Translations under genes and position numbers: made by a program
Origin: a virus
DNA length: 64,000 nucleotides
IMG/VR virus record: IMGVR_UViG_3300033552_000003
Coordinates: 1 to 64,000 of that record
Reading direction: 5' to 3' (one strand)
The notes under the pieces: generated by a model
Told to the model about the DNA's origin: nothing
Databases searched by the model: none
The model's input: only the letters and a program-made list of their open reading frames with translations
Shown: piece after piece, positions 1,641-55,015 of the stretch
How positions within the stretch are numbered: position 1 is the first letter of the stretch
Layout: each line of letters begins with the position of its first letter

Positions 1641-1860
1641 TTATTGATCTTAATTTAACTGTTGTATATAAAGAAAAGAGAACTAATTAAAGTTCTTTTT
1701 ATGTTATTTCTTGTCATAGTTCTGATAATCAGTTACGGTCATGATTATTCCTTGATATTGTACCATAGTTGTAGGTTTTAAAAAGTTGAGTCAAATATTA
1801 TTGCTAATACTATAACTAATAGTATTAGTCTAAGTATAGTTTTTTGTGACATAGATTAGT

Positions 1861-1889
1861 AAATAAAGAGGGAGAAATTAATCTCCCTC
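1861..1889 (-). terminator. rho-independent terminator for the 1896-2411 gene
   Basis: 8-bp stem gagggaga (1868-1875) / tctccctc (1882-1889). On the minus strand it is followed by UUUAUUU, 7 nt after the stop codon. Confidence 0.6.
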
Positions 1890-1895
1890 AGTTAA

Positions 1896-2411
1896 TTAAG
1901 CTTTAACAGTTACTGTTTCAGCAGATTCTACAGGAATAGAAACTCTATCTGCAGAAGCTTTATTGAATAAACCACCAGCTTTAAGTTCTTTAGCCGCAGG
2001 AACCATGTATGATTTAACAGACATAATTTTGTTTTCTGCAGAATCAAGAACGAATTCGCCAGCTTTTGTTGCGAAGTCGATAATCGCTTCGATTGTATCA
2101 CCTTTTACAGGGATAGCAGGATTAGGATTGCTGTCAGTTACAAGGATTTCGTGTGTGAACGTCATACCTTTGATATCAGCTTCTTCTAATTCACCGTTTT
2201 GGAATGCTTCAGCAATACGTTCAGCATTACGTGGATCGTAAGCAGCGAAGTTGATAAGAATTGAGTGTCTGTAACCGTCAATTTTACCAACAGCAGTTTC
2301 TTTTACAAATGGAGAAGTTACTGATGCTACTGGTAATTTAACTTTACCAAGTTGTACTAATACTAATTTTTCAGCTTGAGCTAATTTTGTGTTGTAAGTT
2401 GTTGTTGACAT
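1896..2411 (-). CDS. hypothetical protein, 171 aa; first gene of the leftward unit, probably highly expressed
   Basis: ORF in the track. Noticeably GC-richer codon choice than its neighbours and its own terminator. No motif I can name. The antisense ORF 1963-2241 is judged spurious. Confidence 0.75.
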   Translation of the reverse strand: MSTTTYNTKLAQAEKLVLVQLGKVKLPVASVTSPFVKETAVGKIDGYRHSILINFAAYDPRNAERIAEAFQNGELEEADIKGMTFTHEILVTDSNPNPAIPVKGDTIEAIIDFATKAGEFVLDSAENKIMSVKSYMVPAAKELKAGGLFNKASADRVSIPVESAETVTVKA

Positions 2412-2460
2412 GATTGTAGTATTTAATTGTTTGTTTTAATCCACAGACGTTGTGGTCCGA

Positions 2461-2476
2461 ATATTCATATGAATAT
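2461..2476. promoter_or_regulatory. 16-bp perfect palindrome ATATTCATATGAATAT, operator-like; extra half-site ATATTCAT at 2511-2518
   Basis: Read directly; 50 nt upstream of the minus-strand ATG at 2411. Confidence 0.4.
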
Positions 2477-2840
2477 AGAACTTCTACAAGGTTACAACCC
2501 TTGATATTACATATTCATCCCTTGCTGGATAACTTGTGGTAATTACTCCACTAACCTGGCTTTGTTTATGTAATATGATTATAATATCATGATATTATCC
2601 TGTTTAATTGGATAGGAGTTTATTTACTTGATTAGAGTAAAGAGTTTAATATTATATAATTTGCTTTATCTATCAATGATTAATATCAAGATTCTGTACT
2701 TACATCTTCGTTATTGTTACATAACTTATAGTTTTCCTCTGCGGTACTTTTTCTATATCCTAGGTAGACAAGTCACTTACAGTCAGCATCATATGATTTA
2801 GGTTGATCTTATCCTAATGGAATTATATAATATTAAGAGT

Positions 2841-2912
2841 TTGGTACACAATTCATTTACAGTTATATAAGGATCTTACTGCCCAGTATAATGTATTGAT
2901 ATTGTGTACCAA
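2841..2912. repeat. 12-bp perfect inverted repeat ttggtacacaat / attgtgtaccaa with a 48-nt spacer
   Basis: Read directly and reverse-complement checked (2841-2852 vs 2901-2912). Confidence 0.8.
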
Positions 2913-3061
2913 GGTTTTTAGTGTTATTGACAAACTGATATAGCAAGAGTAGTCATAAGTACAAAGTATACTGTACATACTGTTGCTGTGATAATAGTCT
3001 TTTTGTTTGATTGTAGAGATAATTGTAGAGTTTTCATAGTTGTATGTGTTTAGATTGTTAG

Positions 3062-3303
3062 TTATGTATGATTTAAGAATGTTTAGATTTATTCAATAAT
3101 ATATGCGTTGTATGTACTATGTATGGTTTTAGTATGAGAGAGATATGTGGGAGAGAGGTTTAACCATCACTCTATCAGTCACTTACAACATAAAATCTTA
3201 GGTAGTTATGATGGATTACACGCTACAACCCAATAGATACGTTATAACAGTATGATTATCTGTATGTTACGCTGTTATCTATGTAGTTAACTGTCTATGT
3301 ATG
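3062..3303 (+). repeat. iteron-like direct repeats TATGTATG (3063-3070, 3118-3125, 3296-3303) within a GTATG-rich stretch
   Basis: ctatgtatg is identical at 3117-3125 and 3295-3303; ttatgtatg at 3062-3070. Several further GTATG copies lie between 3041 and 3305. Confidence 0.6.
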
Positions 3304-3328
3304 AGGGCAATAGTATATGTTATTGAAT

Positions 3329-3420
3329 ATCCAGAAAAGAATAGAGACGACAGGATCATATCATAGCTTATCTTGTAAGTGATTGATTAACTGATAACTC
3401 AACTCTCTCCTTTTCTGGAT
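3329..3420. repeat. 11-bp perfect inverted repeat atccagaaaag / cttttctggat enclosing 70 nt
   Basis: Read directly (3329-3339 vs 3410-3420). Confidence 0.8.
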
Positions 3421-3556
3421 TGAAGTAACGTACTAACTGATTGTTAGACGATTATTTATATGTTAAGAACATGTTTTATTCCCGCAAATCCTTAACGTTC
3501 TACTAACCATACGGGGGTAAGTCAGCTCAATGTTAAGTGGGGGTATTATATGGTGT

Positions 3557-3629
3557 CTAGCTAGAGATATCTATTCCACAGAAAAAAATAATTATGATTT
3601 TTAAAAAATAAAAAAAATTATTATCTCTA
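3557..3629. repeat. A-tract block (3570-3621) bracketed by the inverted repeat tagagata / tatctcta; palindromes ctagctag and agatatct on its left edge
   Basis: 3562-3569 vs 3622-3629. Interior is gaaaaaaataattatgatttttaaaaaataaaaaaaatta. Confidence 0.7.
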
Positions 3630-3882
3630 CCAGGATCTTAAATTTCAAACTACCCCACAATCCCTTTTTCAGGACTCTATTCTTATCTGTTATACTCTTA
3701 CCTATGTACACAGTTCGGTCTCGCTTCGCTCGTCCTCCTTGTTTTTATTGTTTTATTATTAAATTAAATATATGTATATCAGATAAGATACATATTACTT
3801 GTTAAGTAATTGATAATCAGACTTGGAGGGTACATGTAAGTTTGCTTCAAAGCAAAATATGTTTGGTCTATTGCAAACTTTG

Positions 3883-3914
3883 TTTGCTTTACTCCAAATT
3901 TTAGTCTATATTTG
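3883..3914 (+). promoter_or_regulatory. Bacteroidota-type promoter TTTG-N20-TATATTTG for the rightward block
   Basis: TTTG at 3883-3886, 20-nt spacer, TAnnTTTG at 3907-3914, about 70 nt upstream of the ATG at 3984. Matches the published Bacteroides -33/-7 consensus. Confidence 0.4.
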
Positions 3915-3983
3915 AGTACTGAAAGTCAGTATTCTTTACTTTTAGTATAAAACTTACTACCCTGTGAATAAATCTCTACAAAT

Positions 3984-4526
3984 ATGATAGATCAAATTAA
4001 AGAATTACGTGTTAAAATTGATGGATTAGCTCAATTGACTAAAGGATTATTACCTTTATTTGAAAAAAACAAAGAGGGTTATAGACATTATGCAAATTAC
4101 AATTCTGAAGAAATAAACAAGTCTTATAACTCACTTATTCTAGCAAAAGCTTGGTTAGGTAAAGTATTATTTGAGTTAGGTGATAAAACACCTTATAAAT
4201 CAGGATATAAAACTGTATCTGATATTGAACCTACTGTAGATATTTTAAATAAAAAAGGCGTCTGTCTAGGTAAAGTAAATGGAATTCCTAAAATTATTGA
4301 AAAAGATTTTATTTCTGAAAATTATCAAGAAATGAATCATATTGAAAAAGTAGATTGGTTAAAAACTGAGATAGAAAATACTATTATAGAAGTAGAAAAG
4401 TTTGTTATACCAACAACTAAAAGAAAATTGGTTATTTGTGTAACTAATACTTTTACTCACTTATCAGAAGCTAAATTCCACTTGGGATTTGAATTACAAC
4501 GAATTAAAAAACAATCAAATAAATAA
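3984..4526 (+). CDS. hypothetical protein, 180 aa
   Basis: ORF in the track; first gene of the rightward block. Confidence 0.75.
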   Translation: MIDQIKELRVKIDGLAQLTKGLLPLFEKNKEGYRHYANYNSEEINKSYNSLILAKAWLGKVLFELGDKTPYKSGYKTVSDIEPTVDILNKKGVCLGKVNGIPKIIEKDFISENYQEMNHIEKVDWLKTEIENTIIEVEKFVIPTTKRKLVICVTNTFTHLSEAKFHLGFELQRIKKQSNK

Positions 4527-4530
4527 TAAT

Positions 4531-4785
4531 ATGGAACTAGGATCATATCACATGCCTTTTAAGTATAGAGGAAAGGTAATTGAAAAAGATAAAATGTTTA
4601 TCTTTTTTGATGGTCAAAAAATGCAAATAAATCAATATGAATTTGAATTTCATAGTTCTACAGCTTTAACATATGAAGAAGTTAAACAAAAATTAGCAGG
4701 TACTGAAGATTTACTTGTAATAGCTGGAGATTTTATAGTTAAAAGTATGATGGAAAATGAAGTAGAAATTAAAACAATTAAATAA
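4531..4785 (+). CDS. hypothetical protein, 84 aa
   Basis: The track ORF starts at 4489. The ATG at 4531, 4 nt after the upstream stop, is the more likely start. Confidence 0.6.
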   Translation: MELGSYHMPFKYRGKVIEKDKMFIFFDGQKMQINQYEFEFHSSTALTYEEVKQKLAGTEDLLVIAGDFIVKSMMENEVEIKTIK

Positions 4786-5634: not shown

Positions 5635-6066
5635 ATGACAAGCTGGAAGAAAAATATAATTACAGAAACTTTAGATGAAAGTACTGGAGAAGTTGTAAAA
5701 ACTTTTGAAAGACTTAAAGCTGAGGATTTTGTAATTATATTTAATTCTGCTTCTGTATTATTATCTACAGATACATCTCCTACAGAAATAAAGTTATTAT
5801 TTGCTTTATTTAAGATTGTAGAGTATAATACAAATAAACTATATATAACGTCTAAAAGAAGAATTGAGCTTAGAGAAATTATAGGAGGAGAAAAGATTCT
5901 TAATAATGGTAGTTTTTCAACTGCTTTTAGAGGATTAATAGATAAAAAGATATTGTTAGTTTCAGAAGGAAATTACATACTCTCCCCTTACTTTTTCTGG
6001 AAAGGTGAATTATCAGTTAGAACGAAACTACTTAAAGTAGTCTTAAAAGAACAATTAAATGGATAA
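5635..6066 (+). CDS. hypothetical protein, 143 aa (possible winged-helix DNA binder; weak)
   Basis: ORF in the track. Helix-rich region followed by a K/R-rich hairpin-like segment. Function is not established. Confidence 0.65.
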   Translation: MTSWKKNIITETLDESTGEVVKTFERLKAEDFVIIFNSASVLLSTDTSPTEIKLLFALFKIVEYNTNKLYITSKRRIELREIIGGEKILNNGSFSTAFRGLIDKKILLVSEGNYILSPYFFWKGELSVRTKLLKVVLKEQLNG

Positions 6067-7860: not shown

Positions 7861-8144
7861 TGGAGTCGAATATAAGAATGGAATCTATGCGAGAGGTAGC
7901 TAAAAAATTTAACATACCTTTATATGTAGTAGAAAAAGTAATTGAAGCTGTTTATACAGATCTAAAAAATACAATAGAAGATAGTACACAAGATGGTTAT
8001 GCTTTACCTCATTTTGGTAAGTTCTATCAAAGTGAAGGTAAACTACTTCAATTAAATATAAAAAAACAAATAAGAAATGTGGGTCGCAAACGAAAACTTC
8101 AAAACTCTAATACCGAACATGAATCCCCTGAGTCGGGAATATAA
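7860..8144 (+). CDS. IHF/HU-like DNA-binding protein
   Basis: MREVAKKFNIPLYVVEKVIEAVYTDLKNTIED...YALPHFGKFYQ follows the HU/IHF pattern (helical N-terminus, then h-h-P-x-FG-x-F arm start). An IHF-like gene next to TerL is a conserved crAss-like feature. The 3' end overlaps TerL. Confidence 0.5.
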   Translation: MESNIRMESMREVAKKFNIPLYVVEKVIEAVYTDLKNTIEDSTQDGYALPHFGKFYQSEGKLLQLNIKKQIRNVGRKRKLQNSNTEHESPESGI

Positions 8145-45760: not shown

Positions 45761-46780
45761 ATGACAGAAGATACTAATTTAGGAGATGGTTTAAAAGTAA
45801 CAGGAAATTATCATGTAGATAGTCTTTATGGACCATATTTATCTATTGCAGATGCAAATGCTAAAGTAACTCTTTATCTAAGATCTGTTTCTGGTGTTAC
45901 AGGATTATTAGTTGGACGTACAGTTGCAATTGATGATGGTACAGTTAGAAAAGAATACTGGTGGGATGGTGGAACTGCAGATACAAATCTTGTTGAAAAA
46001 GTAGCAGGAAGCGGTGGTGGTGGAAGTACTTATACAGGTGTTTCTCCATCAAATGTAACTGTTGGAGGAATACCTTCAGGTACAAATCTTACAGGTAAAA
46101 CATTTACTGAAGTAATTCAACTATTAACAGTTACATATATAAACCCTAGCTTTACTGGATTTAATTTTACAGGTCAAGCACAAACTGTAGAAATAGGTAC
46201 AATATTAACTGGTTCTAGAACAATGACATGGTCTATCAATTCAGGATCAGGTACAATACCTACAATAGATATATTAGATAATACAGCAGGAACTACTTTG
46301 TTAGCTGGAACACCTAATGATGGAACACAAACATTAACAATAAATACAATTCAATTAAATACTGGTGGAGCAACACAAAGCTGGAGACTTAGAGGAAATA
46401 ATACATCTCCTGTAGGAACATTCAATTCTGGTGACTTTAATGTAGTAGGTAGATTCATATTATTTTTTGGTGCAACAACAAGTACTCCAACAACATCTGC
46501 TCAAATTAGAGCATTACCTCAAACACAGTTTTACACTGGTGGAGGAGTAATACAACTAAATACAGGTACGGGTATTAAATTTGGTGTTGCGGTTCCTCCA
46601 GGTTCTACTGTAGTTTCTGCAATAGATTTAGATGCTTCAAATGCAAATGTTACTTACACATTCGTAGGAAACATAAGTGTAACCGATGCAGGTGGTACAG
46701 CTAGGCTATACCCTTATTACGAAGCAAACATTGCAGTTGCATATTCTTCAAATCATAGATTTAACATATCAATATCTTAA
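45761..46780 (+). CDS. tail fibre / fibre adaptor, 339 aa
   Basis: G/T/S-rich beta-type composition. The N-terminal GPY..ADANA module plus GSGGGGS linker is shared with the next gene. Confidence 0.65.
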   Translation: MTEDTNLGDGLKVTGNYHVDSLYGPYLSIADANAKVTLYLRSVSGVTGLLVGRTVAIDDGTVRKEYWWDGGTADTNLVEKVAGSGGGGSTYTGVSPSNVTVGGIPSGTNLTGKTFTEVIQLLTVTYINPSFTGFNFTGQAQTVEIGTILTGSRTMTWSINSGSGTIPTIDILDNTAGTTLLAGTPNDGTQTLTINTIQLNTGGATQSWRLRGNNTSPVGTFNSGDFNVVGRFILFFGATTSTPTTSAQIRALPQTQFYTGGGVIQLNTGTGIKFGVAVPPGSTVVSAIDLDASNANVTYTFVGNISVTDAGGTARLYPYYEANIAVAYSSNHRFNISIS

Positions 46781-46783
46781 TAT

Positions 46784-49075
46784 ATGGCACAAACTCCCCC
46801 ATCATTACAACTACAGGCAGGCGTAAAGACCTTAAACCCGTATGAAGTAGAAACAGACAAAGGCCCTTATGCAACCGTTGCGGAAGCGAACGCTGCAATA
46901 AGTTCTGCTGTTCGGTTTATTGGTAAAGAAGCAAAAATAATTACAGCAGGAGTGCCAGTTTTACACATGTATAGCGGAGGAATATTAGACTCTAATCTAG
47001 TTCCTGCTTCTGGTGGCGGCTCGGCAGGTGGTGGCTCTGCTACTTCGTTAATTGAAAACATTACAGCAGGAGAAAATTTAGCATCTGGCAATTTAGTATA
47101 TTTAAAAAACGATGGCAAGTGGTGGAAGTCTGAAAGTCTGAATGTAGCAACTTGCGCAACAGAATTAAGAGTGGCACTAGCAGCAATAACCGTAAATGCC
47201 GTAGGCTCTAGTTTAATTACAGGTCAATTTACAACAACAGGATTAACAGCAGGTGCTATATATTACGTAGGTGCAGCAGGCTCTATTGTTTCAGTTGTGC
47301 CAGACACAGAAGGTATTGTAGTTCGAGTTGTTGGTACAGCATTAAGTACTACGGTATTTGAGTTTAATCCAGATTCAACATACATAGAAACTACACAAAT
47401 TTCTCCGATTAGTAATACTGAAAACGCTTTAACATTAGCGACTATAGTTACAGCAAATACCACATTAGCAAGTTCTAATTTATTAATTCCAGTCGACACA
47501 ACAGCAAACAGTGTAAATATAACACTGCCAAGTTCCCCGTTATCTAAAGATAGAATGGGGGCAAAACACATAACCCAAGGAAGTACAAATACGGTTACTA
47601 TTACATGCGCATCTGGACAGACATTTAATAAAGCAAGTGGGCCTACAACATTAGTATTGTATGTTCTTAATCAAGCTTGTTTATTAAGATTTGATTCTAA
47701 TATATGGTATGTAGAATCTGACAGTAATGCTTTAAGCCAGTTAGATTTAAGGTTCGGGAGTAAAACGGCAGTAGATTTAAATACAAATCAAATAGCGACA
47801 CTAACAGCTTCTTCTCAACGTAGATTCGGAGCATTTTCAAATAAAAATATAATGGGGGTTGGAAGTTGTTCTCCGTACGTTTCTGGAATACTGTCTAACG
47901 GAACAACAGATGTAGCGGAGACTAGTAAAATTTCTTACTACATGATAGGTAAATCCACTGAATTGACTGTTTACTTTACAAATTATGATAGTTTCCAATC
48001 TTCGACAATATCGGCATCTGACGATATGACATTAACAGCGTCGCTAGAATATCCAGCTGGAACTTTAACAAAAATAACTTTTAAAAATGGAGACAATAGC
48101 GTTTTGTTAAGACGTGGTTTTGGCATTGCTTCGGATTTTGTAAAAATATTTATTCCTGAAAATACTCAATATTGGATTCGCACATGTGTGACAGTAGTTT
48201 CAGGTCAAAAATGGTGTAGATCAATGGTTTCGGCTACTGGGTTTTATGCTTATGGGCAAGCATTTGAAGGAGTTCTAGCAGGAGATAATACAATGTCAGG
48301 AACTATTCCACAAACCAACTCGTACTGTTATGGGCCTACTGCAATATTTGGGGTTGGAAGCACAACTAAAGGTTCTGTAGCTCTATACGGCGATTCAATA
48401 AGTGCAGGATCAGGAGATAATAATCCTGTTCCATTAAGATATGAATTTGGCGGTGGTATTTATGGCAGAGCGTTTGGGTTTGCATATAATACATTATCGC
48501 TAAATAATCCGGGATGTTCTTTAGCTTCAATTCAAAAAAATTTAAGTGTAAATTATAAATATTATGATGAGTTGCTAAGTTCTGTACAGCTTTTTATTTC
48601 TAATTTAGGAGTTAACGACTTTCCTGTTACTTCCGAATCTGTAATGCAATCGCATTATATTAACATATGGTATAATAATTATGCACACGGGATTAAAGGA
48701 TACCAAACGACAATTACACCATATACGACAAGCACAGATTCCTGGGCAACAATAGCAAATCAAACGGCATCAGTAAATGACTCAAGAAGGATTTTTATAA
48801 ATACATGGATGCGAGACGGGGCACCAATAAACTATAGTACTAAAGTAGCAGCAGCGACAGGAGCGACAGGGACAAATATAGTAAGAACGGGAAATATTTT
48901 ACACCCATTAAGAGGCATATTTGACGTGGCTGCAACGGTTGAGTCTTCATTAAACTCTGGTAAATGGATTGTAAATGGTACGGCTAATTATGCTACTGTC
49001 GATGGGCTGCATGGTACTCCTAATTCATACCCATTAATGATTGTACCTATAGATTTAACATTATTTAACGTTTAA
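46784..49075 (+). CDS. tail fibre with a C-terminal SGNH/GDSL esterase domain
   Basis: Shared N-terminal module. SGNH blocks: ALYGDSISAGSG (GDS at 48389-48397), NLGVNDF, VDGLHGT (49001-49012). Confidence 0.7.
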   Translation: MAQTPPSLQLQAGVKTLNPYEVETDKGPYATVAEANAAISSAVRFIGKEAKIITAGVPVLHMYSGGILDSNLVPASGGGSAGGGSATSLIENITAGENLASGNLVYLKNDGKWWKSESLNVATCATELRVALAAITVNAVGSSLITGQFTTTGLTAGAIYYVGAAGSIVSVVPDTEGIVVRVVGTALSTTVFEFNPDSTYIETTQISPISNTENALTLATIVTANTTLASSNLLIPVDTTANSVNITLPSSPLSKDRMGAKHITQGSTNTVTITCASGQTFNKASGPTTLVLYVLNQACLLRFDSNIWYVESDSNALSQLDLRFGSKTAVDLNTNQIATLTASSQRRFGAFSNKNIMGVGSCSPYVSGILSNGTTDVAETSKISYYMIGKSTELTVYFTNYDSFQSSTISASDDMTLTASLEYPAGTLTKITFKNGDNSVLLRRGFGIASDFVKIFIPENTQYWIRTCVTVVSGQKWCRSMVSATGFYAYGQAFEGVLAGDNTMSGTIPQTNSYCYGPTAIFGVGSTTKGSVALYGDSISAGSGDNNPVPLRYEFGGGIYGRAFGFAYNTLSLNNPGCSLASIQKNLSVNYKYYDELLSSVQLFISNLGVNDFPVTSESVMQSHYINIWYNNYAHGIKGYQTTITPYTTSTDSWATIANQTASVNDSRRIFINTWMRDGAPINYSTKVAAATGATGTNIVRTGNILHPLRGIFDVAATVESSLNSGKWIVNGTANYATVDGLHGTPNSYPLMIVPIDLTLFNV

Positions 49076-49082
49076 AAATATT

Positions 49083-51950
49083 ATGGCTAAAATTGCAAAA
49101 AAAATAAACGGTATAATTTCAATAGTTGGGCCTTCTGGCTTAACGTCCTTCAATGGCCGGACAGCAGCAGCAGTAGTATTTACTCTTGCTGACTTACCTG
49201 CACTTACTGGATACGTTTCGCTTCCTGGTGTTGTTTCCGCTACAGATACACCTTTTACAGCCATTCAAAAATTGGACGGGAATATTAAGGCATCAACAGG
49301 CAAACAAATAGGAGTTATAATTTCAGACGACTTTACTAGAACAACTTTAGGAGGGAATTACACACAAGTAGGTGCGATCGGGGTTGCAATAACAGCAAAT
49401 AAGTTAGCACTGTCTGGAGCCGGATCTTATGCTACGCATGTACTCAGAAACGATTGGTATGTAAATTTAAAAACATGGGATATTGAAGCTGACTTTGTAA
49501 TAGATTCGGCAGGCGGAGGTTTAGCTATTATTTTAAAGGGGGCCATCGCTTCATCATATTTTAAAATAGACAATACAGGTAAATTATTTATTGATTACGA
49601 TTATCCAACGCTAACAAATGCAGCAAATTCAGGAACTAGTTTAGTTAGCTTTGCGACAGGTGAAACTATACATGTTAAAGTATCTAGAAATTATAATTCA
49701 GTAACATTAACAGCATACAATACTACAACTCCTTCAAATCAAGTAGCGGTAACAGCAAATGCAGACCTGTCAACTACAGGATTTACATTTGGAACCGTTG
49801 CACGTATTGCATTTGCTCAGCTTGGCGGAAGTAACACAGTTGATAACTTTGCTTATTCTAGCAAGATTCAGGAGGGTGCAGAAATAGCAGTGGTGCACGA
49901 TAGTTTAGGAGATGGTTACAATGCAGGAGCTTCGGGGCTTGAATGGATTAATCACTTAGCATCTACTTTAAATATACGTGTAGAAAAACTTGGTACATCT
50001 GGAAATAAAACATCAGATTCAATAAACTCTTTACCCGAATTAGGTTTATTGAAGCCAAAATATACCCTATTAAGTATAGGAGTAAACGATACAACAGGCG
50101 GCGTATCTCTAGCGACATTTCAAGCTAATGTAACTACAATAATAAACTATTGCCGATCAATAGGATCAATACCTTTATTTACTACAGTTCCCGTAACGAC
50201 TGGCTCCCCTACTGTAATAGATACATATAACGCATGGTTGACTGGCACAGTGCAGGGTTTGTGGGGCATTCAGGTAATTGACATTACTACTTACCTGAAA
50301 GATGGCGGAACTTCATTAGCTGCAAAATTCAGTTCGGACGGCACGCATTGGCCTTATAATGGGCACGCAGGAGTTGGGGCTTTAGTTGCAAATGCTTTAA
50401 CGTTTAGATTCCCTCGACAAAGAATTTCTTTTCAAGAAGACGGTTATAATGTTAACGTAGGCACAACAAACAATACAACTCCTGTTAAACACACATCTAG
50501 CGTATACAAAGGGGTGTTCTTGGGTGATGGCAACTATTTGTATAACGAATTAATTGCAGGTCAAGAAGGCTTATCTTTGGCAACAAATAGAGTAATGCTA
50601 TTGTCTGGTGCATCAGCACCTAATTCGGCATCTTTGCCCTCATGGAAAGCAAACATTTCAAATGTTGGAGATGCGTTTACTTTATTTAAAGCACCTGCAA
50701 CTGGTACAAATTTAGCAGATGTTATACAATTTAGTGTAAGAGGTAATTCAGCAGGATTTTCAAATTTTGGGTTCAATAGAGCTGGTAATGTTGGAAATTA
50801 TACAGTAGATATCTATAATCCTAATTCCGCAGAAACATCTGTTAGGATAAACTCACAAAGTACACCTCAGTATGCTTTTATGGAATACGCTATAAATGGC
50901 ACTCAAGTTCATTATGTACACCCGTCCGGAAGTTTAATAATAAATCCACTAAATAACACAACAGCAGGAAGGGGAAGCATACATTTAGGAAGCCTTCAGC
51001 AATATACTAATGCAACAAATATTATATTTCAAGCTGCCGGAACGGCTCCAACAATAGCGCAAATTAATACAACAGGTTTTGCGCAGTTTGCATCTGTAAG
51101 ACCTTCGACAACAAAAGTGGGGTGGTCTATATTGGCTGGAGATGGAACTCCGCACTACATAGGTGATAGGGTTGGGTTTGGAACACTAAATCCAAACTCG
51201 TATTTAACAACAATGGGGGGGAATCATTTAGCTCCTGCAATGAATTTTGATTTACTACAGCCAACTTCAGCAAGCGGCAGCGGTACAATAATTTCTTTAG
51301 GTTTTCCAGCACAGCCGCAGTCAAATTATGTAGTTGGTCAAATAGTAACACTTACGGGGTTTACACCAGCTACGTACAATGGAGATTATCCTGTTGCAAC
51401 TGTAGGACAAGCATTTTTGACACTTACAGGAACACCAACAGCAGCGGTTACAGTGTTAGGCAAAATAGGTTCACTTATAAGTGCTCCTCTTGCTGGGTCG
51501 GTTGAATATAATGGTCTTAGATTATTTCAAACACCTGCCTCATTAATACGCCAAACAGTAGCATGGTTATCTGACTTTACTAACGCTACTATTAATCACT
51601 TGATTGGTGGTGGGAATGCCCCAACTATTGCAGCAGGTGCAGGAGCAGGAACAGGCCCAACTATTACAATTACTAAAGCAACGGATTTAAGTGGAGTAAT
51701 TACGGTAACTACGGGAACATTACCTACTTTGGGTGCAACAATAGCAACGGTTACATTTGCAATTCCATTTACAGCAGCACCTAAAGTTATATTGTACAAT
51801 TCAGGGGTTAATTCAGCAGCTTTGAGTGGGGCCTCAATGGTTTATGTTGGCGACGCAAACACAACAGCACTAAAATTTGACTTAACATCTGGAGGTACGC
51901 CATTAAACGCAGCAACACCATATACATTTACTTACTTTATAACTCAATAA
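49083..51950 (+). CDS. tail fibre with a central SGNH/GDSL esterase domain
   Basis: Blocks VVHDSLGDG (49896-49904), LGTSGNKT, IGVNDT, SDGTHW (50337-50348), followed by a long A/G/T-rich C-terminal region. Confidence 0.7.
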   Translation: MAKIAKKINGIISIVGPSGLTSFNGRTAAAVVFTLADLPALTGYVSLPGVVSATDTPFTAIQKLDGNIKASTGKQIGVIISDDFTRTTLGGNYTQVGAIGVAITANKLALSGAGSYATHVLRNDWYVNLKTWDIEADFVIDSAGGGLAIILKGAIASSYFKIDNTGKLFIDYDYPTLTNAANSGTSLVSFATGETIHVKVSRNYNSVTLTAYNTTTPSNQVAVTANADLSTTGFTFGTVARIAFAQLGGSNTVDNFAYSSKIQEGAEIAVVHDSLGDGYNAGASGLEWINHLASTLNIRVEKLGTSGNKTSDSINSLPELGLLKPKYTLLSIGVNDTTGGVSLATFQANVTTIINYCRSIGSIPLFTTVPVTTGSPTVIDTYNAWLTGTVQGLWGIQVIDITTYLKDGGTSLAAKFSSDGTHWPYNGHAGVGALVANALTFRFPRQRISFQEDGYNVNVGTTNNTTPVKHTSSVYKGVFLGDGNYLYNELIAGQEGLSLATNRVMLLSGASAPNSASLPSWKANISNVGDAFTLFKAPATGTNLADVIQFSVRGNSAGFSNFGFNRAGNVGNYTVDIYNPNSAETSVRINSQSTPQYAFMEYAINGTQVHYVHPSGSLIINPLNNTTAGRGSIHLGSLQQYTNATNIIFQAAGTAPTIAQINTTGFAQFASVRPSTTKVGWSILAGDGTPHYIGDRVGFGTLNPNSYLTTMGGNHLAPAMNFDLLQPTSASGSGTIISLGFPAQPQSNYVVGQIVTLTGFTPATYNGDYPVATVGQAFLTLTGTPTAAVTVLGKIGSLISAPLAGSVEYNGLRLFQTPASLIRQTVAWLSDFTNATINHLIGGGNAPTIAAGAGAGTGPTITITKATDLSGVITVTTGTLPTLGATIATVTFAIPFTAAPKVILYNSGVNSAALSGASMVYVGDANTTALKFDLTSGGTPLNAATPYTFTYFITQ

Positions 51951-54533: not shown

Positions 54534-54537
54534 TTTG

Positions 54538-54608
54538 CACAAAGACTAAGACTCGAACTTAGATTAACGGTTTTGGAGACCGTGGTTCTACCATTGAACT
54601 ATCTATGT
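54538..54608 (-). tRNA. trnW: tRNA-Trp (CCA)
   Basis: Hand-folded cloverleaf, 71 nt: ACAUAGA-UA-GUUC-AAUGGUA-GAAC-C-ACGGU-[CU CCA AA]-ACCGU-UAAU-CUAAG-UUCGAGU-CUUAG-UCUUUGU-G. One U:U mismatch in the acceptor stem; CCA is not encoded. Confidence 0.8.
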
Positions 54609-54614
54609 GTGTAG

Positions 54615-54688
54615 AGGAAAGTCTCAGATTCGAACTGAGGATCACTTGATTAACAGTCAAGAGCTTTAACCAACTAAGCTAACTTTCC
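54615..54688 (-). tRNA. trnN: tRNA-Asn (GUU)
   Basis: 74 nt: GGAAAGU-UA-GCUU-AGUUGGUUA-AAGC-U-CUUGA-[CU GUU AA]-UCAAG-UGAUC-CUCAG-UUCGAAU-CUGAG-ACUUUCC-U. All stems are perfect. Confidence 0.85.
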
Positions 54689-54774
54689 AAATGACAGAGT
54701 ATTTTTCCTAAAAGGAGCCATTTTAATTTATACACAGTTGCTTTCTCCCTCTGTCAGGGAACACTATCAGTTTG

Positions 54775-54848
54775 TGAGTCCAATAGGATTTGAACCTATG
54801 ACGCTTACCTTTTCAGGGTAACGCTCTACCAGACTGAGCTATAGACTC
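54775..54848 (-). tRNA. trnF: tRNA-Phe (GAA)
   Basis: 74 nt: GAGUCUA-UA-GCUC-AGUCUGGUA-GAGC-G-UUACC-[CU GAA AA]-GGUAA-GCGUC-AUAGG-UUCAAAU-CCUAU-UGGACUC-A. Confidence 0.85.
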
Positions 54849-54851
54849 AAA

Positions 54852-54922
54852 TTATTCTCCAAGGATTCGAACCTTAATTGACAGTTCCAAAAACTGTAGT
54901 CCTGCCGTTAGACGAGAGAATA
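54852..54922 (-). tRNA. trnQ: tRNA-Gln (UUG)
   Basis: 71 nt: UAUUCUC-UC-GUCU-AACGGCA-GGAC-U-ACAGU-[UU UUG GA]-ACUGU-CAAU-UAAGG-UUCGAAU-CCUUG-GAGAAUA-A. Confidence 0.8.
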
Positions 54923-54923
54923 G

Positions 54924-55015
54924 CAACTAGGGAAGGCTTCGAACCTCCAAATACTTTTAGTTAAAAGTAAACATTCGAGACAGGAATGCGTGTTTGCCAA
55001 TTTCACCACCTAGTT
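54924..55015 (-). tRNA. atypical class-II (long variable arm) tRNA; the anticodon position reads GUC
   Basis: 92 nt: AACUAGG-UG-GUG-AAAUUGGCAAA-CAC-G-CAUUC-[CU GUC UC]-GAAUG-(23-nt variable region with stem ACUUUU/AAAAGU)-GGAGG-UUCGAAG-CCUUC-CCUAGUU-G. Leu/Tyr-like architecture, but the anticodon is formally Asp and position 37 is U. Confidence 0.55.

Follow-up and report, generated by a model that had tools for sequence, protein, structure and literature searches.

What does a phage do with a gene-poor stretch at the very point where two sets of its genes diverge? We address this question for positions 2412 to 3983 of a 64,000-nucleotide (nt) stretch of viral DNA (IMG/VR record IMGVR_UViG_3300033552_000003, positions 1 to 64,000; hereafter the window). 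Left of 2412 lie minus-strand genes, the first of which encodes a 171-amino-acid (aa) protein, and right of 3984 plus-strand genes run toward the terminase gene at 8077. Judging from its sequence, the window comes from an uncultured crAss-like phage: its terminase, a match to PHROG 6681, shares 34% identity with the enzyme of Cellulophaga phage phi14:2, and it encodes giant open reading frames (ORFs) of 3,984 and 1,681 aa, which are typical of the crAss virion polymerase block. An earlier reading of the letters without database searches (the sequence-only reading) had suggested for this region a replication origin, the physical genome ends or a large structured non-coding RNA. We find there a near-invariant, single-copy core and a chain of hairpins with covarying stems, and we propose, at a probability of roughly one half, that the region joins the promoter/operator of the rightward operon to the start region and structured 5' leader, or a non-coding RNA, of the leftward early operon.

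A near-invariant core and covarying hairpins on the early-gene strand

Close relatives of the phage are absent from the GenBank phage collection, IMG/VR and the GTDB genomes. Relatives found through the 171-aa protein, through a DNA pattern taken from the core and through the terminase gave a comparison set of nine distinct sequences in six lineages (the window and L004; L002 and L013; L006 and L015; L005; L009; L019). A metagenome-scan match, L012, was discarded as a GC-rich chance match. A gene-poor gap occupies the same place in every lineage for which both flanking genes were recovered (1,572, 1,248, 1,910, 2,536, 1,401 and 595 bp), and it holds sequence blocks that are conserved across relatives; the flanking 171-aa proteins are 63-75% identical between lineages. 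Gene-poor early-side regions also occur in a sister group of genomes with terminases about 50-55% identical.

The most conserved sequence of the region, which had escaped the sequence-only reading, is a core of about 125 nt at 3448-3573, upstream of all minus-strand genes. A profile of it scores 104-115 bits (nhmmer) in all members of the clade. This profile and a covariance model each detect exactly one copy per genome there, and no match in the sister group, phi14:2 or the rest of the window. The core is non-coding, with no reading frame staying open across lineages. It holds two runs of five G 26 nt apart (3513 and 3539), in a window with just 11 G5 or C5 runs in all its 64 kb, and a third similar box is present in L004, L006 and L015. 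Next to it stands the AT block that had already been recognised, at about 3580-3628, flanked by GAGATATCTC-like near-palindromes at 3562-3571 and 3620-3629. The block is AT-rich in all lineages and variable in sequence and length, reaching at least 95% AT over at least 40 nt only in the window and L009. The 8-bp inverted repeat at 3562 and 3622 that had been read as bracketing this block exists, but it is not a conserved stem: it consists of the two GAGATATCTC-like sites, whose relative orientation varies between lineages and which also occur twice in L009 and L019.

From the core toward the early genes, the minus strand can form a series of hairpins. H0 (3503-3525; CUGAC/GUUAG stem) has 79.6% of its alignment cells paired and encloses the loop UUACCCCCGUAUG, which contains the first G-box on the plus strand (3513-3517) and reads as the near-invariant ACCCCCGUA on the minus strand; its pair 12-30 is G·U in five sequences, A·U in two and G·C in two, and is valid in the minus sense only. 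H1 (3462-3496), found both in folds and with Infernal, has a stem of 6-11 bp and a near-invariant loop, CGGGAAUAAAA (TTTTATTCCCG on the plus strand, 3474-3484); in the Infernal alignment 76.5% of its cells are paired and five of nine pairs change on both sides. H2 (3429-3450), of about 8 bp, forms in every lineage folded singly, from sequences that differ, and its support in the Infernal alignment is weak (64.8% paired) because its register varies. Over H0-H2 together, 70.5% of cells in that alignment are paired against 61.8% in shuffles, and 11 of 23 pairs are compensatory against 6.0 expected, values reached in none of 500 shuffles.

The longest helix, H3 (3329-3420), pairs 18-20 bp between arms at 3329-3346 and 3403-3420 around a variable interior (19 pairs with RNAalifold), and it takes in the 11-bp inverted repeat at 3329-3339 and 3410-3420 that had been noted before, which exists but is only part of an 18-bp helix. 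In H3, 92.7% of cells are paired, compared with 79.3% in shuffles and 51-62% in slid controls, and both partners differ in 12 of the 19 pairs, where 6.2 would be expected; neither figure was reached in 500 shuffles. The last hairpin, H4 (3157-3214), was read from alignments and folds, as CCATCA/TGATGG in the window and as CTACCTNAG/CTGAGGTAG at the same place in other lineages. H0, H1 and H3 covary significantly. The same series of hairpins recurs in every lineage from differing sequences, and L009, the shortest version, keeps H0-H2 only.

Two observations assign the fold to a strand. In H0, H1 and H3, 26 cells hold G·U and three hold A·C when read on the minus strand, and the minus strand folds more stably in six of eight sequences, as well as in L019, although the plus strand is G/T-rich. 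The folded strand is therefore that of the early genes. The idea of a structured non-coding RNA is thus borne out by at least three covarying helices with a minus-strand bias, but not in the form of one globally folded RNA of 1.6 kb: sliding-window energies show discrete patches only, and the hairpin chain spans about 400 nt. Several further candidates were rejected. The pairing of CTTAAC with a downstream GTTAAG is lost in L002 and L006; a long-range pair (3166-3193 with 3368-3395) and the 11-mer repeats of the sequence-only reading are not conserved in L002; and of two possible DnaA boxes, TAATCCACA is a covarying hairpin arm and TATTCCACA is not conserved.

No known RNA family accounts for these structures. 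Among the families of Rfam 15, none matches the window at gathering scores except tRNAs at 54.5-55.0 kb, where a cluster of five (Trp, Asn, Phe, Gln, Asp) lies on the minus strand at 54537-55015; with permissive filters, no match in 2200-4200 is better than E = 5, and in the relatives' loci Rfam finds tRNAs only. ARAGORN and Rfam/Infernal detect no tRNA or transfer-messenger RNA (tmRNA) in 1800-4200 of the window.

A candidate leftward promoter, suggested by a consensus scan (10 of 12 matches), reads TAGATA-17 nt-TATAAT and abuts ACCCCC on the minus strand at 3545-3573. The spacing between its GATAT box and the AT-rich hexamer is 17-19 nt in all lineages, and the pair lies upstream of H0 on that strand. 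In L009 the core with H1 and H2 is followed after about 45 nt by the start codon of the 171-aa gene and so occupies the place expected of a promoter plus leader.

Small genes, leaders and promoters around the core

Two statements about reading frames in 2412-3983 hold up: there is no ORF of at least 60 aa, the longest being a 57-aa ORF with a TTG start at 2628-2801, and each of the six frames contains all three kinds of stop. An alternative genetic code was rejected, as reassigning any single stop opens no long frame. The region had been described as ORF-free, but it is not devoid of coding sequence. The 37-aa ORF on the minus strand at 2924-3037 is a gene for a single-pass membrane peptide, MKTLQLSLQSNKKTIITATVCTVYFVLMTTLAISVCQ, conserved at the protein level in seven sequences; its homologues in L002, L013, L004, L005, L006 and L015 have 27-56 aa (BLASTP E-values from 2.7e-5 to 6e-21), and the gene is called in L011 too. 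This leaves 2412-2923 and 3038-3983 as the truly non-coding parts of the region. In L004/L005 and in L006/L015 the gap holds further small genes, of 76-89 aa.

The small gene is framed by two different kinds of sequence. Directly downstream of it on the minus strand stands a perfect 12-bp stem with a 48-nt loop (2841-2912), whose arms are identical in L004, where the loop differs, and which is absent from L002; plus-strand positions 2800-2999 give a local folding z-score of -3.9. Upstream of it, 3038-3150 forms a C/A-rich leader, the GTATG-rich stretch of the sequence-only reading seen on the other strand, with a GC skew of +0.46 on the plus strand, folding z-scores of about 0 and little predicted structure. 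Between the small gene and the early genes, 2560-2830 aligns poorly between lineages.

All three perfect inverted repeats that had been listed (12, 11 and 8 bp) are present where they had been placed. Such repeats exceed chance: two have arms of at least 12 nt and loops of at most 200 nt, where 0.06 would be expected (a number reached in 0 of 300 dinucleotide shuffles), and there are none in four coding control regions of equal length. The direct repeats proposed as iterons (AGTCACTTACA, TAGGTAG and TATGTATG) also exist, but they are not conserved, which speaks against that role; the second copies of AGTCACTTACA and TAGGTAG sit in parts that cannot be aligned between lineages. A perfect 16-nt repeat at 2646 and 2821 had not been listed.

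The first early gene itself (1896-2411, minus strand) is richer in GC than its surroundings (about 0.40 compared with about 0.27) and ends at a strong intrinsic terminator (1868-1889). Its 171-aa product has no Pfam or PHROG match, and its AlphaFold model is of low confidence (predicted local distance difference test score, pLDDT, 55) with no significant fold match. The top matches of this low-confidence model are weak and mostly single-stranded-DNA binders of the oligonucleotide/oligosaccharide-binding fold, with T7 gp2.5 second. An assignment of function from these matches was rejected; the C-terminus, too, lacks the acidic tail of a single-stranded-DNA-binding protein (SSB).

The leader of this gene follows the same layout in every lineage: a tRNA or T-arm-like hairpin, two covarying hairpins, an A-rich stretch and the ATG. 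In the window, all on the minus strand, hairpin A (2487-2503; CAAGG-GTTGTAA-CCTTG) resembles a tRNA T-arm. Hairpin B (2461-2476; ATATTCA/TGAATAT) changes in a compensatory manner to TAATCC/GGATTA in L006 and to AATAATCT/AGATTATT in L005, as does hairpin C (2441-2455; CCACA/TGTGG), which is CCATA/TATGG in L002, CCGTA/TACGG in L004 and L006, and ACACTA/TAGTGT in L005. The A-rich stretch (2412-2440; minus-strand reading ...ACAAACAATTAAATACTACAATC-ATG) is nearly invariant in all lineages, by a six-way alignment and by comparison of the leaders. A true tRNA-Met occupies the orthologous gap of L004 (7863-7936), directly upstream of hairpin B, and of L005 (7285-7359); L005 also carries a T-arm-like fragment, GTGGTTCGAATCCAC, just upstream of its homologue of the 171-aa gene. 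Hairpin A is possibly a tRNA remnant or an RNA-processing signal, and the common layout suggests that the message of the 171-aa gene is cut from a longer precursor.

On the other side of the core, a promoter search with the sigma-A pattern of Bacteroidota (TTTG, 17-22 nt, TAnnTTTG, upstream of a gene) finds one full match in the region and five in the window. This canonical host-type match, TTTG-N20-TATATTTG on the plus strand at 3883-3914, faces the rightward operon, whose first ATG (3984) lies 70 nt downstream, and it is preserved, fully or almost so, in L002, L004 and L006; the minus strand of 2412-3983 has no match to the pattern. A promoter of the same form (-33 TTTG, -7 TAnnTTTG) has been mapped experimentally for the phi14:2 middle promoters P108 and P110 (bioRxiv 10.1101/2020.03.07.982082), and P110, like ours, stands in a divergent region and faces the terminase side. 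The promoter at 3883-3914 differs from both in being overlapped by an array of TTTGY-N6-RCAAA dyads (3840-3898), to which Tandem Repeats Finder assigns a period of 21 nt and 2.4 copies. The array, unlisted before, has one or two copies in the window, L002, L004, L006 and L019 and five in L005 and L009; words of the form GTTTG/CAAAC reach 3-10 per 260 nt against 0.65 expected, and the core columns of the dyad are invariant. It is these dyads, and not the motifs named by the sequence-only reading, that are the real operator-like or iteron-like repeats of the region. Right after the -7 box, the plus strand at 3914-3934 forms a 9-bp hairpin with a T-rich tail (GAGTACTGAAAGTCAGTATTC TTTACTTTTA), which falls in the 5' leader of the gene at 3984 and is terminator-like by a consensus scan.

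Leader RNA, origin, promoter or genome end

Read together, these features outline a path for leftward transcription. It would start at or just upstream of the core, at about 3540-3575, with the AT block behind the start, and by analogy with phi14:2 it would probably be the work of a virion RNA polymerase. The RNA would fold H0 to H4 in turn (from about 3525 down to 3157), exposing the loops of H0 (ACCCCCGUA) and H1 (CGGGAAUAAAA), which probably bind a protein or each other. It would then pass through the little-structured C/A-rich stretch into the 37-aa membrane-peptide gene, pass the tRNA-like hairpin and the two hairpins after it, likely processing or stabilising signals, and reach the highly conserved 171-aa early gene, ending at the terminator at 1868-1889. 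On the other side, the host-type promoter at 3883-3914, overlapped by the phased dyads, would drive the rightward operon toward the RepL-like and terminase genes. The sequence comparisons thus point most likely to a leader RNA that is a new structured RNA, rather than to a proven origin or genome end. We infer that the folded molecule is RNA and not single-stranded DNA, and with it the start position, the polymerase and the role of the RNA. A leader is also supported by position: the conserved minus-strand genes downstream (2924-3037 and the 171-aa gene) mean that this strand must be transcribed, and no Bacteroidota-type promoter stands between them and the hairpins. Arms 56-100 nt apart, as in H3, are moreover too distant for cruciform extrusion in duplex DNA.

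A precedent comes from phi14:2, in whose early region two long intergenic stretches give rise to transcripts running in the early direction, persistently and above the level of most genes (Drobysheva et al., bioRxiv 10.1101/2020.03.07.982082). These abundant early non-coding RNAs correspond to the g004-g005 and g005-g006 junctions, and their function was reported as unknown; the early genes are assigned to the virion polymerase and have no recognised promoter motif (bioRxiv 10.1101/2020.03.07.982082). Like the window, phi14:2 is crAss-like and has in its early region an ORF-free stretch of about 1.6-1.7 kb in early-gene orientation with tRNA-related elements. Its stretch (2905-4601), however, is set off from the divergence point by about 4.8 kb in the downstream direction; in the window the stretch lies at that point. 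The phi14:2 stretch is also expressed and is in part a tmRNA, whereas the region studied here is known from sequence alone and has no detected tmRNA. We observed this tmRNA in the phi14:2 record (L018, NC_021806) at 4031-4502 on the plus strand, inside the g005-g006 region, where ARAGORN (tag peptide GSSVQKLAMVA*) and the Rfam model agree; the Rfam match is full length, at 46.0 bits and E = 1.4e-16, one bit below the gathering score. It is unannotated in the record and unmentioned in the preprint (bioRxiv 10.1101/2020.03.07.982082).

Several points weigh against a leader RNA. Neither BLASTN, nor an nhmmer profile, nor a covariance model finds homology between the region and phi14:2, and the flanking genes are unrelated; with no sequence homology to the phi14:2 non-coding regions, the analogy is positional only. 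The folding energy over the whole region is not unusual. A possible plus-strand pairing within the core, of UUUAUUCCCG with CGGGGGUAAG, tolerates by eye all the substitutions observed. Recognition as DNA by a protein, at a promoter, an origin or a packaging site, would explain the near-total invariance of the core at least as well as an RNA role. The pairing percentages, drawn from nine sequences in six lineages, lean toward structure, since the H3 arms were selected on folds of single sequences and the alignment of H0-H2 was made to fit the model. Finally, G·T wobble is tolerated in single-stranded DNA too, so that the strand asymmetry is no proof of RNA.

Some of the rival explanations could hold side by side with a leader RNA, as they are not all mutually exclusive. 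The strongest of them, which we regard as possible though rather unlikely, is a replication origin at which an initiator of the RepL type binds the dyads and/or the G-boxes and palindromes of the core and the AT block melts. A candidate for this initiator exists: the product of the ORF at 5635-6066 (plus strand, 143 aa) in the rightward operon is homologous to RepL proteins of the sister group (35% identity, E = 6e-21) and is, from this similarity, probably a winged-helix replication initiator. The proteins of L021 and L020 pass the Pfam RepL cut-off of 20.3 bits with 32.2 and 22.8 bits, whereas the window protein has no direct match and is RepL by transitivity only. The 21-nt spacing of the dyads equals two helical turns and reaches five copies in L005 and L009, the AT block is flanked by palindromic sites in all lineages, and the core is single-copy. 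For prototypic crAssphage, a preprint has predicted an origin immediately ahead of repL, where the forward strand begins (PMC10983915). In the window, no iterons were found near the RepL-like gene, and no better iteron array or AT-rich patch competes there with the region.

Other points weigh against an origin. As in iteron origins with an autoregulated initiator gene (P1 oriL with RepL, and the origin predicted for crAssphage, PMC10983915), there are phased sites and an AT block, and the promoter that bears the repeats belongs to an operon with a RepL-like gene, but here the repeats are palindromic dyads that overlap a canonical promoter and are equally well explained as operators. P1 oriL lies inside repL, whereas the RepL-like gene of the window is 1.65 kb from the right edge of the region, its distance to the core being about 2.1 kb. 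In the sister group RepL occurs without the core. The iteron motifs put forward by the sequence-only reading are not conserved, and what keeps its idea of an origin alive is the other dyad array, the AT block and the RepL-like gene. Skew lends no support either: the cumulative GC-skew minimum falls about 2.5-3.5 kb to the left (window position 0, give or take 1 kb) and follows gene orientation, with no switch at the region. We observed that the minus-strand genes at 148-2411 have a slightly positive plus-strand GC skew, while genes in the 8 kb to the left of the window, known from L011, are clearly negative, which places the turning point near window position 0 and not at the orientation switch.

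Two variants would place the hairpins or the transcript within the origin itself. The hairpins could act as single-stranded DNA, in the manner of the single-strand initiation signals of rolling-circle plasmids (sso elements such as ssoA and ssoU) or of the complementary-strand origins of G4 and M13, with which they share strand specificity, a single-copy hairpin chain, covarying stems and constant loops. Those systems, however, act in single-stranded replicons of a few kb, and the window shows neither sequence similarity to them nor a sign of a single-stranded intermediate. Alternatively, a transcript from the core could serve as the primer, as it does at the T7 primary origin or at T4 oriF, although the minus-strand RNA is C-rich here, which would disfavour a stable R-loop. 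A role as an origin is thus possible but unproven.

More doubtful still is the sharper proposal that the core, with its AT-rich box, two C-runs and hairpin with an invariant loop, is the start site of the injected virion RNA polymerase of crAss type and the hairpin chain the first RNA made on infection. If this were true, the phage would make an abundant structured early RNA with a function of its own, in protein binding, message protection or the priming of replication at the AT block. Quite unlikely, in our judgement, is the related view that the core, perhaps together with a triloop hairpin, is a promoter recognised by the virion polymerase as DNA, possibly as an extruded hairpin as in phage N4, with the downstream hairpins incidental. 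This view gains from the giant ORFs of the virion polymerase block, from the position of the highly conserved core ahead of all minus-strand genes, and from phi14:2, whose early genes are transcribed by the virion enzyme, assayed on denatured DNA (bioRxiv 10.1101/2020.03.07.982082).

A further point in favour of a DNA-level promoter is that in the clade, the window included, and in L020 and L021, the head of the early strand carries an AT-rich box that abuts a C-run and is unique or nearly unique in each 22-64 kb; in phi14:2 a CCCCCAC motif precedes the first early gene by about 100 nt. The strict form of six A/T followed by five C failed, however, as a signal for early starts across the family in both genomes of a prospective test (L022 and L023): L022 has a loose version only and L023 has none. 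A looser layout, in which C-runs come after an AT block on the early strand, stands at the head of the early operons in L020, in L021 and in L022, perhaps also in phi14:2. In L022, a sister-group phage, a 939-bp ORF-free gap (3697-4635) stands at the divergence point and holds an AT block of about 70 nt, then C6 and C5 runs on the early strand; its first early gene encodes 172 aa and is unrelated to the 171-aa gene of the window. The authors of the phi14:2 study saw no common motif upstream of early transcripts (bioRxiv 10.1101/2020.03.07.982082), which counts against a DNA-level promoter, as do two features of the core: it occurs once in about 72 kb, compared with several early promoters in N4, and H0, inside it, covaries in an RNA-like or single-strand-like manner.

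Hairpin promoters of N4 type were also sought. The N4 system resembles the region in its injected RNA polymerase and in small conserved hairpins upstream of early genes, one of which has a 3-nt purine-rich loop, but N4 has three such promoters with 5-7-bp stems acting on the template strand, whereas the hairpins of the window are single-copy, have longer stems and large loops, and lie on the non-template strand. To our knowledge, the crAss polymerase is unrelated to the T7-like enzyme of N4. The region contains one triloop hairpin (3717-3735 within 3717-3749; minus-strand core CGAAG/CGTAG), followed by a plus-strand T-run at 3738-3749. It shows compensatory changes in the window, L004, L002/L013 and L006/L015 and is absent from L005 and L009, and its purine loop is on the non-template strand for leftward transcription, which speaks against an N4-like use. 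It may instead be a plus-strand terminator or a minus-strand structure.

That the region holds the physical genome ends, as a direct terminal repeat, or a pac or cos packaging site recognised by the terminase, seems very unlikely. Its position between the early operon and the operon leading to the terminase would suit such a site, as would a conserved, single-copy core with repeated boxes, the report that the early genes of phiCrAss001 lie at one end of a linear genome, and the start of the L019 contig inside the region. Terminal repeats, however, usually break or end assemblies. Seven independent contigs from different samples cross the region unbroken; six of them extend at least 3.7 kb to each side, and L003 has 3.3 kb on its shorter side. 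This argues against a terminal repeat or physical end here and leaves that part of the sequence-only reading unsupported. The window holds no second copy of the region, and several cultured Crassvirales have no terminal repeats.

Least credible of all is a patch of decayed genes or a hot spot of gene exchange with chance repeats, which the variable gap length (595-2,536 bp), the gain or loss of small genes (76-89 aa) and tRNA-Met among lineages and the poorly aligning 2560-2830 make possible for 2520-2840, but which is largely refuted for 3150-3920 by a core that is near-invariant although the flanking proteins are 63-75% identical and has no conserved frame through it, by the covarying helices and by inverted repeats above chance.

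The surrounding genome and what the region means

Other observations concern the wider genome. Positions 45900-51900 of the window have a GC content of 0.36-0.41 against about 0.27-0.30 in the remaining genome. The close relative L004 (4171-4512) and the sister-group phage L023 (4449-4802) each carry a Tad2-like gene (PF11195, an anti-Thoeris family) in the rightward operon, with no counterpart noted in the window. The large terminase subunits of several relatives (L005 1-2184 and many terminase matches) have 1,060-1,150 aa and bear the intein/homing-endonuclease domains PF05203, PF05204 and PF14528, which the window terminase lacks.

For crAss-like phages, the start of infection is largely obscure: a polymerase is injected for which no promoter is known, and the early non-coding RNAs of phi14:2 have no assigned function. 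Against this background, the region provides a defined, conserved, single-copy element of about 125 nt together with hairpins supported by covariation at the head of an early operon. It also illustrates that gaps which look "empty" in such genomes conceal small conserved membrane-peptide genes. What had been a non-coding gap has now become a set of specific candidates: a start site, a structured early RNA and a binding array for a regulator or initiator.

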